Below are positions 10,161 through 38,704 of a stretch of DNA of 64,000 nucleotides, one piece after another; the stretch's first letter is position 1; each line of letters starts with the position of its first letter. The stretch comes from Escherichia phage vB_EcoM_G9062, in sequence record NC_054920.1. One strand, written 5' to 3'. The notes under the pieces are model-generated. The model was given only the letters and a program-made list of their open reading frames with translations. It was not told the origin of the DNA and made no database searches. Both the position numbers and the translations under genes were made by a program.

Positions 10161-10631
10161 TTAATCATGTTTCCACACCCCATCGGTATTTGACCAAAGT
10201 CGCTGATTATCTGATCCTCGCCACAGCTTTTTAGTCGGAAGATTTTTCTCATACTTCCCATCAATAATAACATCAACATATTTAAGCATTTCTAGCTGTT
10301 TAATATCTTCAAACTTATATCCTGTCCACAACCAAATGCTTTTATTGGGATAAAGATTTTTAATAGTTTGAACCACAGAGTGAATCACGTCTCTGTTATC
10401 AGGATAAAGAGGGTCACCTCCGGTTATAGTTAATCCTTCTATATAATCATTATTCAAACATTCAATCAATTGTTCTAGCGTTTCACCAGTGAATGGAATA
10501 CCATTTCTAGCATTCCATGTTGATTTATTATAACACCCTTCACATTTATGCAAACAACCTGTAACGAAAAGAACGACCCTGCAACCAGGGCCATTCACAA
10601 AATCACAAGGATAAAATCTATCATAATTCAT
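10161..10631 (-). CDS. nrdG: anaerobic ribonucleotide reductase activating protein (radical SAM)
   Basis: 156 aa; CLHKCEGC radical-SAM cysteine triad; immediately downstream of nrdD. Confidence 0.9.
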   Translation of the reverse strand: MNYDRFYPCDFVNGPGCRVVLFVTGCLHKCEGCYNKSTWNARNGIPFTGETLEQLIECLNNDYIEGLTITGGDPLYPDNRDVIHSVVQTIKNLYPNKSIWLWTGYKFEDIKQLEMLKYVDVIIDGKYEKNLPTKKLWRGSDNQRLWSNTDGVWKHD

Positions 10632-12445
10632 TGATGCTTAACCCTATGCATGATTTCTTTATTTTTACCGAGATTAAATCCGCGTTCGTTCGGGTTTCCA
10701 AGATATCCGCATGTTCTTCTTATTGTGTTCATCTTTTTAGGATCAGTTTCTCCACAAATAGAACAAACAAATCCGTTTTCAGTAGGAGTCATTTCATGGG
10801 TACTTCCGCATGTAAAACACTTATCTACTGGCATGTTAACACCAAAATAATCTAAATGTTGTACAGCATAATCCCATACAGCCTCAAGACCTTTTAGGTT
10901 ATTTTTCATATCAGGAAGTTCAACATAAGAAATGTGACCACCTGTCGCAATGAAATGATATGGCGCTTCACGAGAAATTTTTTCAAACGGAGTAATATTT
11001 TCTTCTACTGAAACGTGGAAACTATTAGTGTACCAGCCTTTATCGGTAACATCTTTTACACTTCCATATTTTTCTGTATCAAGTTTACAGAAGCGATAAC
11101 AAAGGTTTTCAGCAGGAGTCGAATATAAACTAAAAGCAAATCCAGTTCTTTCAGTCCACTGTTTAAGATGAGCATTCATTTTAGTTAAAATTTCTTGTCC
11201 AATATCACGACCGACAAGAATATTCAATTCGTGAATACCAATGTATCCTAGGGACACTGAACTTCTGCCGTTTTTAAATAACTCAATTATGTCATCATCA
11301 GGTTTAAGACGAACCCCGAATGCACCTTCTTGGTAAAGAATAGGAGCTACAGTTGCTTTAACACCCTTTAAAGAACTAATTCTACGCATCAAGGCTTCAA
11401 AGCACAGATCCATTCGTTCATTAAATAGCTCAACAAATTTCTGTTCATTGAACTGTGTTCCAATATAAGAATCTAATGCGATACGAGGAAGATTCAGTGT
11501 TACAACACCGAGATTATTACGTCCATCAAGAATTTCATTACCAGTCGAATCTTTCCATACGCTCAAGAAACTACGGCAGCCCATCGGAGAAACAGGAATA
11601 GATGAACCAGTGATAGCTTTATTGTTCTTAGCTGAAATAATATCAGGATACATCCTTTTGCTTGCACACTCTAGAGCAAGCTGCTTAATATCATAGTTCG
11701 GATCGTCTTTATAAAGATTAACACCTTCTTCAACGAACATAACAAGCTTAGGGAAAATAGGAGTTATCCCATCACGACCGAGACCTTTAATACGATTTTT
11801 CAGAATTGCTTTCTGAATCATTCGTTCAGTCCAGTCAGTTCCCGTACCAAATGTAATTGTTACAAAAGGTGTTTGCCCGTTTGAACTAAAGAGAGTATTT
11901 ACTTCATATTCATAAGCTTGAAATGCATCGTATACGTCTTTTTCTGTTTTAGATTGAGCATAATTCAACGCATCGGCGATTTGCCATTTTTCTGCATCCT
12001 CAATATGTTTTGCATAGGTGCGTTTAACATAAGGAGAAAGTACTTTATCTACATTCGCAAAAGTCGTTCCGCCGTATTGGTGAGAAGCAACCTGTGCAGT
12101 AATTTGTGCCATAATTGCAGTAGCAACGCCAATTGATTTAGGAGTTTCAATCTGTGCATTACCAAGCTTAAATCCGTTCTCAAGCATTCCTTTTAAATCT
12201 ACTAAACAGCAATTAGTAAATGGAAGAGCAGGGGAATAATCAATATCATGGAAATGAATAATTCCGCTTTCATGCGCTTTCATAATAAAAGACGGGACCA
12301 TATTTTTGGCAATGTGTTTAGACACAATACCAGCCATAAGGTCCCGTTGAGTTGGAAAAACACGAGAATCTTTATTAGCATTCTCGTTTAAAAGGTCTTT
12401 ATTAGTTTTATGAATCAATCCTTCAATTTCTTTTTCAATTGTCAT
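10628..12445 (-). CDS. nrdD: anaerobic ribonucleoside-triphosphate reductase (glycyl radical enzyme), intron-less
   Basis: 605-aa continuous ORF; C-terminal glycyl radical motif RRTCGYLG and CxxC zinc site; length equals spliced T4 NrdD. Confidence 0.9.
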   Translation of the reverse strand: MTIEKEIEGLIHKTNKDLLNENANKDSRVFPTQRDLMAGIVSKHIAKNMVPSFIMKAHESGIIHFHDIDYSPALPFTNCCLVDLKGMLENGFKLGNAQIETPKSIGVATAIMAQITAQVASHQYGGTTFANVDKVLSPYVKRTYAKHIEDAEKWQIADALNYAQSKTEKDVYDAFQAYEYEVNTLFSSNGQTPFVTITFGTGTDWTERMIQKAILKNRIKGLGRDGITPIFPKLVMFVEEGVNLYKDDPNYDIKQLALECASKRMYPDIISAKNNKAITGSSIPVSPMGCRSFLSVWKDSTGNEILDGRNNLGVVTLNLPRIALDSYIGTQFNEQKFVELFNERMDLCFEALMRRISSLKGVKATVAPILYQEGAFGVRLKPDDDIIELFKNGRSSVSLGYIGIHELNILVGRDIGQEILTKMNAHLKQWTERTGFAFSLYSTPAENLCYRFCKLDTEKYGSVKDVTDKGWYTNSFHVSVEENITPFEKISREAPYHFIATGGHISYVELPDMKNNLKGLEAVWDYAVQHLDYFGVNMPVDKCFTCGSTHEMTPTENGFVCSICGETDPKKMNTIRRTCGYLGNPNERGFNLGKNKEIMHRVKHQ

Positions 12446-30029: not shown

Positions 30030-30253
30030 ATACTGGCTTCTTTGAGTTTCATTTTAGCAATAGTTAACTGATCGAGGCTTTCGGCGTAATTCTTCGCGAG
30101 TTCATCATCTTCACAGCTATCAAATGCTTCCCAGAATTCATCATATAAAGCATCAAAGATAAGCCCTAAACGAACTTCAGCATCTTTGATAGCATTCACT
30201 TTACTGATTTTATCGTCAGTATGTGGTTTATAACCTTTAATGTCTTCAATCAT
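29987..30253 (-). CDS. hypothetical acidic protein (88 aa)
   Basis: small ORF. Confidence 0.35.
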
Positions 30254-30467
30254 ATTTTACTTCCTCACCTGTTCCCAAATCATATTCAACTAAACGAATA
30301 GGTTCATGAATGCCATATCCTTGAACAGAAATTTCTGTCGTAGGATAAATTCCATTAATATCACCCATGTTCCATGCTTCGTTAAATTGCTGTTCGCCTG
30401 AATTACTAAACCACTCGGCGAAAGCATTTAGCACATCTTCAGAACCTTCAATAATTATCTTTGCCAT
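30246..30467 (-). CDS. hypothetical protein (73 aa)
   Basis: small ORF. Confidence 0.35.
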   Translation of the reverse strand: MAKIIIEGSEDVLNAFAEWFSNSGEQQFNEAWNMGDINGIYPTTEISVQGYGIHEPIRLVEYDLGTGEEVKYD

Positions 30468-30829
30468 TACAAACTCTCGGTGAAGGTACGAGCGATAACG
30501 TCGCGCTGCTGTTCCGGAGTCAGAGAGTTAAAGCGAACTGCATAACCGGATACACGGATGGTCAGCTGCGGATATTTTTCCGGATGCTTAACTGCATCTT
30601 CCAGAGTTTCACGACGCAGAACGTTAACGTTCAGGTGTTGACCACCTTCAATTTTAACTGTAGGCTGTTGCTCAATTTCAATTTCACGGGCATGCAAACC
30701 ATAGAAAATTTCTGGGTCTACAAAAGAGTCCTCTTTAAAGGTTTTAGAGACAATAATTCGTGCTTGAATACCATCTTCAAAATAAATAGTACCTTTATGT
30801 GTGCCTTCAAGAATTTGATATGCTTTCAT
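30467..30829 (-). CDS. autonomous glycyl radical cofactor (GrcA/YfiD-like; T4 Y06I-type)
   Basis: C-terminal [60 protein letters not shown] carries the glycyl-radical RVSGY motif and matches E. coli GrcA as I recall it. Confidence 0.8.
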
Positions 30830-30835
30830 ATAACC

Positions 30836-31216
30836 TCAATTAGAAAATAAATTTATCCAAGATTGTTCTTTAATTAAAAATGGCTCAGAATCATATGCCA
30901 TTAAACTCTGTGTGATTAGTCCTTTAAAAGGCCCATCAATAAATTCCATGGTAAAATATGGAATTTTATTCATTAGCCGTGCATTAGGAGCCGTGCACAA
31001 AACTCTGCATCCTTTGAATACGCCTTTTTGTAATTTGTATTGCTTGGGATAAAATTCGCTCAAAATGTTATTTTTTGCCAAAATTTCAAAATGATTCACC
31101 AATTTATTTTTAATAGTTTTTGGCGAAAAATAAAGATATTCGAAAAGCTGAGTGTCTGTCATCATTGCATTCCGATTACGAAAAACTGTGGACGAGTAAT
31201 ACCACCAATGCAACAT
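30836..31216 (-). CDS. hypothetical protein (126 aa)
   Basis: ORF; start uncertain. Confidence 0.35.
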   Translation of the reverse strand: MLHWWYYSSTVFRNRNAMMTDTQLFEYLYFSPKTIKNKLVNHFEILAKNNILSEFYPKQYKLQKGVFKGCRVLCTAPNARLMNKIPYFTMEFIDGPFKGLITQSLMAYDSEPFLIKEQSWINLFSN

Positions 31217-37564: not shown

Positions 37565-37876
37565 TTGCGGCAACCTTGTCGGGGTTCCACCTGCTAAGGC
37601 AAGTGTTTGTACGAAACGCCGGGATTCGAACCCGGTTATTAAGCAGTTGACGCTACTCAATATTTTTTAAAAGGCCATATCTCGACCATATCCGAACGTT
37701 CCGTCAAAAACGCTACTCGGCTTACGGCAAAGATATTTCCTCGAATCGATAATTCGGTGCGCCGTTTCTGCTGTGATATAAGGGGACATTAACAAAACAT
37801 AAAGATTTATTAATACCAGTCCTTAAACAGGGAACATCAGTCCGACGACTTGCCGGTAGCGACCCGGCTTCTTGTC
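37565..37876 (-). ncRNA. candidate stable RNAs downstream of tRNA-Arg (position of T4 RNA species 1/2)
   Basis: about 310 nt non-coding between tRNA-Arg and the terminator; contains a tRNA T-arm-like CCGGGTTCGAATCCCGG (37618-37640 rc); synteny with T4 rnaC/rnaD. Confidence 0.35.
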
Positions 37877-37952
37877 TGGTCGAGGCAGTAGGGATCGAAC
37901 CTACGACCCAGGACTTAGAAGGTCCTTGCTCTTCCTTCTGAGCTATGCCTCG
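37877..37952 (-). tRNA. tRNA-Arg (anticodon TCT)
   Basis: cloverleaf with acceptor CGAGGCA/TGCCTCG, anticodon loop CTTCTAA, T-loop GGTTCGATCC, encoded CCA. Confidence 0.85.
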
Positions 37953-37956
37953 TATT

Positions 37957-38031
37957 TGGCGGACGTGATAGGATTCGAACCTATAACCAATCGCTTAACA
38001 GGCGATCGCTCTGCCATTGAGCTACACATCC
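37957..38031 (-). tRNA. tRNA-Asn (anticodon GTT)
   Basis: acceptor GGATGTG/CACGTCC, anticodon loop CTGTTAA, T-loop GGTTCGAATCC, encoded CCA. Confidence 0.8.
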
Positions 38032-38035
38032 AAAT

Positions 38036-38122
38036 TGGTGGGGAGTGGTGGAGTCGAACCACCCGAGTCGCAATGACAATGAATTTACAGTCCACACCGC
38101 TACCTCTACGGGATAACTCCCC
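38036..38122 (-). tRNA. tRNA-Tyr (anticodon GTA), type II with long variable arm
   Basis: acceptor GGGGAGT/ACTCCCC, anticodon loop CTGTAAA, T-loop GGTTCGACTCC, 87 nt with CCA. Confidence 0.75.
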
Positions 38123-38131
38123 AAATTAATT

Positions 38132-38206
38132 TGGTGGCCCTGGGTGGAATTGAACCACCATCTGGCGATTATGAGTCGCTTGCTTGAACCTTCCAGCTAC
38201 AGGGCC
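38132..38206 (-). tRNA. tRNA with CAT anticodon (probably tRNA-Ile, lysidine type; alternatively Met)
   Basis: acceptor GGCCCTG/CAGGGCC, anticodon loop CTCATAA, T-loop GGTTCAATTCC; sits where T4 has tRNA-Ile. Confidence 0.6.
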
Positions 38207-38207
38207 T

Positions 38208-38283
38208 TGGTGCTGATTGACGGAATCGAACCGCCGATCTTCTCATTACAAGTGAGTTGCTCTACCTACTGAGCTAAATCAGC
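38208..38283 (-). tRNA. tRNA-Thr (anticodon TGT)
   Basis: acceptor GCTGATT/AATCAGC, anticodon loop CTTGTAA, encoded CCA. Confidence 0.85.
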
Positions 38284-38288
38284 AAAAC

Positions 38289-38378
38289 TGGCGGAGGCGA
38301 TAGGATTTGAACCTATGAGTCGCCGGAGCGACTGCCGGTTTTCAAGACCGGTGCATTAAACCACTCTGCCACGCCTCC
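38289..38378 (-). tRNA. tRNA-Ser (anticodon TGA), type II
   Basis: acceptor GGAGGCG/CGCCTCC, anticodon loop CTTGAAA, long variable arm, encoded CCA. Confidence 0.85.
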
Positions 38379-38380
38379 AG

Positions 38381-38454
38381 TCTCCGTGGCAGGATTTGAA
38401 CCTACGACATTCTGCTCCCAAAGCAGACGCTCTACCAAACTGGGCTACACGGAG
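38381..38454 (-). tRNA. tRNA-Pro (anticodon TGG)
   Basis: acceptor CTCCGTG/CACGGAG, anticodon loop TTTGGGA, T-loop GGTTCAAATCC; CCA not encoded. Confidence 0.8.
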
Positions 38455-38463
38455 TAAATTAAA

Positions 38464-38538
<75 letters not shown>

Positions 38539-38543
38539 AAATT

Positions 38544-38630
38544 TGGTGCGAGAAGTGGGACTCGAACCCACAAGGAAATCATTCCGCAGCATTTTAAGTG
38601 CTGTGCCTTTACCAATTTGGCCATTCTCGC
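38544..38630 (-). tRNA. tRNA-Leu (anticodon TAA), type II
   Basis: GCGAGAATGGCCAAATTGGTAAAGGCACAGCACTTAAAATGCTG... matches my recollection of T4 tRNA-Leu. Confidence 0.85.
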
Positions 38631-38631
38631 G

Positions 38632-38704
38632 CTGGGAATAAAGGACTCGAACCTTTGCATCCTGGAATCAAAATCCAGTGCCTTACCAACTTGGCTAATT
38701 CCCA
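38632..38704 (-). tRNA. tRNA-Gln (anticodon TTG)
   Basis: acceptor TGGGAAT/ATTCCCA, anticodon loop TTTTGAT, T-loop GGTTCGAGTCC; 1-nt spacer to tRNA-Leu. Confidence 0.8.

Follow-up and report, generated by a model that had tools for sequence, protein, structure and literature searches.

We found that vs.6 of Escherichia phage vB_EcoM_G9062 encodes a GrcA-type glycyl radical protein and that a 169-nt stretch of the gene is identical to E. coli grcA, and we propose that this stretch of an old phage gene was recently overwritten with host DNA. The gene lies in a 64-kb stretch of the phage genome (NC_054920.1) that was analysed as a whole and is referred to here as the window. Our main explanation combines orthology with vs.6 of phage T4, a role as a spare part for pyruvate formate-lyase (PFL), and recent patching from the host, and we hold these three parts jointly with high confidence. 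The gene is divided as follows.

30467 to 30829, minus strand: vs.6 coding sequence, an ATG-start open reading frame of 120 aa, assigned as the ortholog of T4 vs.6/Y06I, a GrcA-type autonomous glycyl radical cofactor
30652 to 30829, minus strand: phage-specific N-terminal half (aa 1-59), AT-rich, with distant GrcA homology and 43% nucleotide identity to E. coli
30483 to 30651, minus strand: putative host-derived patch (gene nt 179-347, aa 61-115, including the glycyl radical loop), 169 nt identical to E. coli grcA
30542 to 30556, minus strand: RVSGY glycyl-radical motif, aa 92-96, from sequence and translation
30467 to 30482, minus strand: phage-type 3' end, ACC GAG AGT TTG TAA, downstream of the 3' junction of the patch

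The product, Vs.6, is a small stand-alone glycyl radical protein of about 14 kDa with no second domain. Its sole Pfam domain is Gly_radical (E=2.5e-18, aa 60-101). In a PDB search the RVSGY motif aligned with RVSGY of GrcA and with that of PflB around G734, and the predicted radical glycine, G95, can be read from the sequence as a GGT codon at 30545-30547. Residues 61-120 are identical to residues 68-127 of E. coli GrcA (YfiD, PDB 6owr) at 60/60 aligned positions, whereas residues 22-57 are about 38% identical to GrcA 28-64 (phmmer and alignment) and the first 20 residues can barely be aligned. Homology to GrcA does reach the N-terminal region: phmmer aligned residues 22-120 with GrcA 28-127 in one stretch, and MAFFT aligned the N-terminal motifs ARxIVxK, F.ED, and RE..E..P.V of the two proteins. 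The N-terminal half has a dN/dS of 0.10-0.24 among phage genera, which indicates that it is under purifying selection. The phage and bacterial proteins thus share a small stand-alone radical domain and the C-terminal 60 residues with RVSGY, in addition to the exact 169-nt DNA match. They differ in that the phage protein is 7 aa shorter, with short alignment gaps in the N-terminal region, and in that E. coli grcA sits between ung and eamB, whereas vs.6 sits in a phage gene cluster.

The best-scoring NCBIfam model for Vs.6, by far, was TIGR04365 (GrcA). The score of 154.9 bits, obtained over aa 20-120 only, lies below the curated cut-off of 170 bits, whereas E. coli GrcA scores 233.9, and the shortfall arises because the N-terminus of Vs.6 is divergent. 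Because the score is under the cut-off, we filed Vs.6 as the phage Vs.6/Y06I branch of the GrcA family and not as a strict equivalog. With the Pfam domain, the RVSGY motif, and the best-scoring family all in agreement, these results bear out the initial annotation, which had read the gene as a GrcA-like spare glycyl-radical protein whose last 60 residues match E. coli GrcA and whose N-terminal half is divergent. The initial annotation had also suggested a comparison with the C-terminus of PflB. The PDB search aligned Vs.6 with residues 697-759 of PflB (5e-26), and 49 of 63 residues, counted from the alignment, were identical (78%). These residues form the C-terminal radical domain of PflB (PDB 1h16, 2pfl), with its RVSGY loop around G734, and are the part that the spare protein replaces. 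Unlike PflB, the phage protein is free-standing at 14 kDa and is without the ~700-residue catalytic barrel. The C-terminal half of Vs.6 also matched phrog_21327, a 760-position profile, at positions 698-759, and this match suggests that some phages may encode a full-length PFL-like glycyl radical enzyme.

Judged from its sequence and its neighbours, the window gene is vs.6 of a T4-like phage of the genus Tequatrovirus. Its product is identical to T4 Vs.6 (NP_049730) at 118/120 residues (98%), and neither of the two substitutions between window and T4 (Q54 -> P and R73 -> H) lies in the RVSGY loop. T4 vs.6 is also 363 nt long, carries the RefSeq label 'autonomous glycyl radical cofactor GrcA', and encodes a protein that we take to be Swiss-Prot Y06I, an identification that fits its size and the place of its gene between regB and denV. 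The order vs.5-vs.6-vs.7-vs.8-denV is common to the window and T4, with a 138-aa open reading frame at the position of denV, and the 22 kb around vs.6 are 98.8% identical to Tequatrovirus genomes such as those of Shigella phage vB_SsoM_JK08 and Yersinia phage PYps35T. The immediate neighbours are these.

30246 to 30467, minus strand: vs.5 homolog of 73 aa, directly downstream (PHROG 1986; T4 synteny)
30836 to 31165, minus strand: vs.7 homolog, directly upstream, with a likely start 17 codons into a 126-aa open reading frame, giving 109 aa as in T4

The full reading frame at vs.7 spans 30836-31216, PHROG 2049 covers its aa 18-126, and T4 vs.7 is 330 nt long. A Pfam search with the product of the vs.5 homolog gave no match, and the stop codon of vs.6 overlaps the start codon of vs.5 at 30467 (TAATG). 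A scan for promoters and terminators around vs.6 gave no excess, with 14 found against 17 expected in shuffled sequence. PHROG 1209 matches Vs.6 over its whole length (aa 1-120, 5.7e-63); the function of this group is still listed as unknown in PHROGs. Homologs of vs.6 occur in 1,505 phage records, many of them labelled GrcA or, loosely, pyruvate formate-lyase, and vs.6 is among the open reading frames conserved in all T4-like genomes compared by Nolan et al. (2006). The window gene resembles T4 vs.6/Y06I in its 120 codons, in its position between vs.5 and vs.7 upstream of denV, and in the sharp change, at gene nt 179, to DNA identical with that of E. coli, and differs in that the 3' junction of the host patch is ~9 nt further upstream than in T4. 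The gene is therefore not new and is already known from T4. The initial annotation had named an equally similar gene, already described in T4, as something that would refute its idea, and T4 vs.6 is such a gene: its rear half matches the host in the same way, with 98.3% identity to E. coli grcA in the last 180 nt.

The likeness to E. coli is confined to one part of the gene and extends to the DNA itself. Compared with E. coli grcA, 78/180 coding positions are identical upstream of the EGGQ motif and 175/180 downstream of it (Fisher p = 9e-33), and GC is 0.51 in the last 180 nt versus 0.33 in the remainder of vs.6. Gene nt 179-363 matched grcA at 97.3% in every complete E. coli genome searched (5426/5426), and gene nt 1-178 had no match in these 5426 genomes. 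When the whole window was compared by megablast, in three pieces, with the 5,426 genomes, the vs.6 patch again matched in every one. No other protein-coding DNA in the 64 kb was E. coli-like, no match fell in the first 22 kb or the last 20 kb of the window, and the one other match was a tRNA gene. That gene, at about 38033-38125, encodes tRNA-Tyr and shares 88% identity with genes annotated as tRNA-Tyr on plasmid records of E. coli. It lies in a tRNA cluster at 37609-38704 on the minus strand, where 10 genes (Arg, Asn, Tyr, Met/Ile-CAU, Thr, Ser, Pro, Gly, Leu, and Gln) were called with confidence, alongside one odd ARAGORN call. T4 has 8 tRNA genes, and tRNA-Asn and tRNA-Tyr look like extras relative to T4.

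A conserved protein could in principle account for such a match. If the C-terminal half had simply been strongly conserved since one ancient acquisition, its identity to the host would reflect selection on protein and codon usage, with no recent exchange, and the C-terminal 60 residues are indeed nearly invariant over Enterobacterales and the phage homologs. The DNA does not follow this expectation. Salmonella, Klebsiella, and Citrobacter encode nearly the same peptide, yet 7-16% of their last 180 nt differ from E. coli, and nucleotide identity of the phage C-terminal half to grcA falls from 97-98% for E. coli to 90-91% for Citrobacter amalonaticus, 85-87% for Klebsiella, and 81-82% for Salmonella. 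(Over the last 180 nt the window gene itself is 97.2% identical to E. coli.) In the patch core, third codon positions differ at 0/55 between phage and E. coli, compared with 26/55 between E. coli and Salmonella and 17/55 between E. coli and K. pneumoniae; the K. aerogenes grcA record was omitted from these codon counts owing to a frameshift in the deposited sequence. Other phage genera keep the peptide at only 74-84% nucleotide identity to bacterial grcA, and in Klebsiella phages the match is to K. pneumoniae instead of E. coli. Because other hosts encode almost the same peptide in diverged DNA, a shared peptide cannot account for the DNA identity, and we consider conservation without recent exchange extremely improbable. 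We conclude from these comparisons that the patch DNA came recently from E. coli or a very close relative, and so the recent host acquisition for which the initial annotation had proposed a protein and nucleotide comparison is supported, at the nucleotide level, for the C-terminal half.

The age of the patch can also be placed relative to other phages. Between the window gene and that of RB69 (Mosigvirus), third positions differ at 13/60 in the N-terminal half versus 1/55 in the patch (binomial p = 2e-5). From this contrast, the patch is younger than the split between the genera of the two phages.

Near-identity by itself has no direction, and E. coli and K. pneumoniae could each have taken the C-terminal half of grcA from T4-like phages. 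We regard this reversal as scarcely credible for several reasons. The host-like patch has a GC of 0.48-0.56 within phage DNA of 0.33-0.37, while a C-terminal half long resident in phages looks otherwise, for example in Karamvirus, where its GC is 0.39. The sequence is present in all 5,426 E. coli genomes. Further, the two halves of host grcA are about equally diverged between host species (identities of 0.85/0.84 for E. coli and Salmonella and 0.84/0.88 for E. coli and K. pneumoniae), which argues that the mosaic gene is not the host one. By composition and divergence, then, the direction of transfer is from host to phage.

Both junctions of the patch lie inside the vs.6 coding sequence. E. 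coli identity begins at TTGAAGG (codon 60/61) and is lost 6-21 nt short of the stop codon; beyond the vs.6 stop, none of the four phages compared shows any similarity to E. coli. Internal junctions imply homologous replacement of part of an existing phage homolog and not capture of a host fragment. At the 3' end, five differences from E. coli grcA fall in the last 16 nt of the window gene. Four of them are in the phage-type 3' end, the fifth is TTC versus TTT at about 30483-30485, and the codons GAG and AGT recur at this end in other phage homologs. The last five sense codons read as follows.

E. coli grcA: TTT ACT GAA AGC CTG
Window vs.6: TTC ACC GAG AGT TTG
T4: TTT ACT GAA AGT TTG
RB69: TTT ACT GAG AGT CTA
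OES_C-2: TTT ACT GAG AGC CTG

The four phages thus have four different 3' junction patterns, with more E. coli-like sequence at the 3' end of vs.6 in T4 and OES_C-2. The phage-type end contains GAGAG about 8 nt upstream of the vs.5 ATG, which may be the ribosome-binding site of vs.5. A need for ribosome binding at vs.5 could account for the patch usually ending before the stop codon.

The patch is widespread, and it varies with the host. Phage records matching nt 200-384 of E. coli grcA at 95% or more numbered 637, and 106 records, all of Klebsiella phages, matched nt 202-369/374 of K. pneumoniae grcA at 95-99%. Salmonella grcA searched against all phages gave no match above 90%, and with this negative search host-matched patches are shown for E. 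coli and Klebsiella only. The Jiaodavirus-type vs.6 genes (KP1, Nispero) have the same mosaic architecture as the window gene, with the 5' junction at the same codon (EGGQ), and differ in that the patch is 95-97% identical to K. pneumoniae grcA and encodes LLDAVE instead of the E. coli LEDAVK. In Klebsiella phage KP1, the C-terminal half of vs.6 shares 95.4% identity with grcA of K. pneumoniae and only 87% with that of E. coli.

Homologs in Karamvirus, Slopekvirus, Pseudotevenvirus, Krischvirus, and the T5-like Tequintavirus belong to the same protein family and have the same size and RVSGY domain, and the 120-aa proteins of the first three genera also have the N-terminal motif of the window protein, which includes a run of 13 residues. 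The C-terminal halves of all five groups differ from that of the window gene in having 74-84% DNA identity to any of 81 bacterial grcA sequences. In Karamvirus the figure is at most 77%, GC is 0.39 in the C-terminal half versus 0.38 in the remainder, and the gene is evenly 73-74% identical to the window vs.6 in both halves. These homologs represent the unconverted state, without a recent host patch. The Krischvirus gene of Escherichia phage W115 (138 aa, locus 167-583) lies beside nrdC.11, outside the vs cluster, and the T5-like Demerecviridae gene of phage NBSal003 (122 aa, locus 320-688) lies beside tRNA genes; the N-terminal halves of both differ from the T4 type, and neither carries a recent host patch. 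As far as these homologs indicate, a grcA-like gene is kept, or was acquired, in several phage families. Some public records with grcA look mislabelled. They include Klebsiella sp. WOUb02 'plasmid unnamed4' and K. pneumoniae CP125156 'plasmid unnamed2', the latter a 'plasmid' of 5.37 Mb that is evidently a chromosome. The assembly of 'Vagococcus sp. WN89Y' (Firmicutes) contains an enterobacterial grcA, 91% identical to E. coli GrcA, and is probably contaminated.

Taken together, the sequence comparisons make at least two host-specific conversions certain, with E. coli as donor in one and Klebsiella in the other, and further conversions within the coliphages likely, this count being based on a small number of aligned genomes and on BLAST counts. 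The coliphage pattern could in part reflect recombination between phages that spread one converted allele. We propose that vs.6 is an old full-length phage homolog of grcA whose N-terminal half diverged to an AT-rich phage form and whose codons 61-115 were recently overwritten by homologous recombination (gene conversion) with chromosomal E. coli grcA. A separate replacement of the same kind occurred in Klebsiella phages from K. pneumoniae grcA, and the event was probably repeated several times in coliphages. The conserved peptide may have kept DNA similarity high enough to seed a first recombination with host DNA fragments; once a host-identical patch was in place, later conversions would be easy, and the phage and host copies could evolve in concert. 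Recurrent host-to-phage gene conversion at vs.6 is well supported by the comparisons above. A stronger form of this proposal is that the rear half of vs.6 is in continuing concerted evolution with the grcA of the current host, favoured by matching to the local PflA and PflB (LEDAVK in E. coli versus LLDAVE in Klebsiella), which we put forward tentatively and consider possible but doubtful. The conversion may be selected for such matching or may be a neutral by-product of recombination. No description of the mosaic or of gene conversion at vs.6 was found in the full-text literature searched, which covered the key T4 papers in part, and a prior report is possible.

The initial annotation had proposed that a spare glycyl-radical domain could repair oxygen-damaged host PFL or phage NrdD. 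Published work on the T4 ortholog speaks for the first of these targets. As described in PMC8683613, T4 Y06I and E. coli YfiD, both about 14 kDa, are the only two validated 'spare part' proteins; PFL-AE installs a glycyl radical on each, and the activated proteins form a complex with oxygen-cleaved PFL and restore its activity in vitro (Wagner et al. 2001, cited there). The N-terminal region of YfiD is disordered and dispensable for catalysis, and its removal lowers radical installation (2026 glycyl radical enzyme review). These properties fit the N-terminal half of vs.6, which is free to diverge yet still constrained.

As the initial annotation stated, the window does encode NrdD and NrdG.

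10628 to 12445, minus strand: NrdD, anaerobic ribonucleotide reductase, 605 aa (Pfam NRDD 1e-170, Gly_radical 4e-25)
10161 to 10631, minus strand: NrdG, the radical-SAM activase of NrdD (Pfam Fer4_12 7e-49 and Radical_SAM)

The nrdD gene is a single unbroken frame of 605 codons, and Rfam detected no group I intron in the window. In T4, a group I intron that carries I-TevIII interrupts nrdD (sunY), and G9062 nrdD appears to be without this intron.

The presence of nrdD and nrdG in the same window makes it conceivable that Vs.6 serves as a spare radical domain for phage NrdD, activated by phage NrdG. Vs.6 and NrdD both have the Pfam Gly_radical domain, a role for vs.6 in nucleotide metabolism was suggested from a Pfam match alone (Nolan et al. 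2006), and the 2026 review leaves it open whether any glycyl radical enzyme besides PFL has a spare part. Several results speak against it. BLASTP of Vs.6 against the NrdD of the window showed no similarity (best E=4), and the PDB search with Vs.6 returned GrcA (6owr, 9e-42), PflB, and then more distant PFL-like enzymes, with no NrdD chain among the matches at E<=0.001. The radical domain of Vs.6 is 100% identical to that of GrcA and 78% to that of PflB, the patch follows host grcA and not nrdD, and vs.6 lies ~18 kb away from nrdD and nrdG. We therefore consider this assignment very unlikely, and NrdD is not a likely partner of Vs.6. The PDB search, the BLASTP comparison, and the published T4 biochemistry together favour host PFL over phage NrdD as the probable partner. 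Of the two repair targets first proposed, host PFL is supported and NrdD is not.

A protein that joins the host radical domain, copied exactly, to an N-terminal half of its own could also compete with host proteins. Vs.6 might then act as a decoy that mimics GrcA and the radical domain of PflB and titrates PflA or blocks PflB, so that PFL is shut down and pyruvate or SAM redirected during infection. How well PFL-AE installs the radical is influenced by the N-terminal region of YfiD (2026 review), and it is there that the phage protein differs. The T4 ortholog was reported to restore oxygen-cleaved PFL and not to inhibit it, according to PMC8683613, and we see little prospect that Vs.6 is such a decoy. 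We favour a PFL spare-part role that would run in three steps, the first two of which are published for the T4 ortholog. Host PflA would place a radical on G95; activated Vs.6 would dock on PflB that oxygen has cut at G734 and restore PFL activity; and anaerobic or microaerobic infected cells would go on producing acetyl-CoA, formate, and ATP. Once infected, the host would presumably no longer be able to induce its own grcA.

The gene itself brings no novelty: its T4 counterpart vs.6/Y06I has served since 2001 as a textbook case of a GrcA-type spare part, and vs.6 already carries the GrcA-type annotation in hundreds of phage genomes. What the patch adds is modest and evolutionary, a side note to a protein that was known before. 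Host DNA is degraded by T-even phages, which are generally regarded as poor recipients of host genes. The 169-nt host patch is present in more than 600 coliphage genomes, and in more than 100 genomes of Klebsiella phages a K. pneumoniae-type patch takes its place. The gene is a convenient natural system in which to measure recombination between host and lytic phage, and it also allows one to ask whether an auxiliary protein of a phage must match the partner enzymes of its host. If concerted evolution is true, vs.6 would be a rare, naturally recurring case of a T-even phage gene converted by host DNA, and one could read the recent host species of a phage from its patch.
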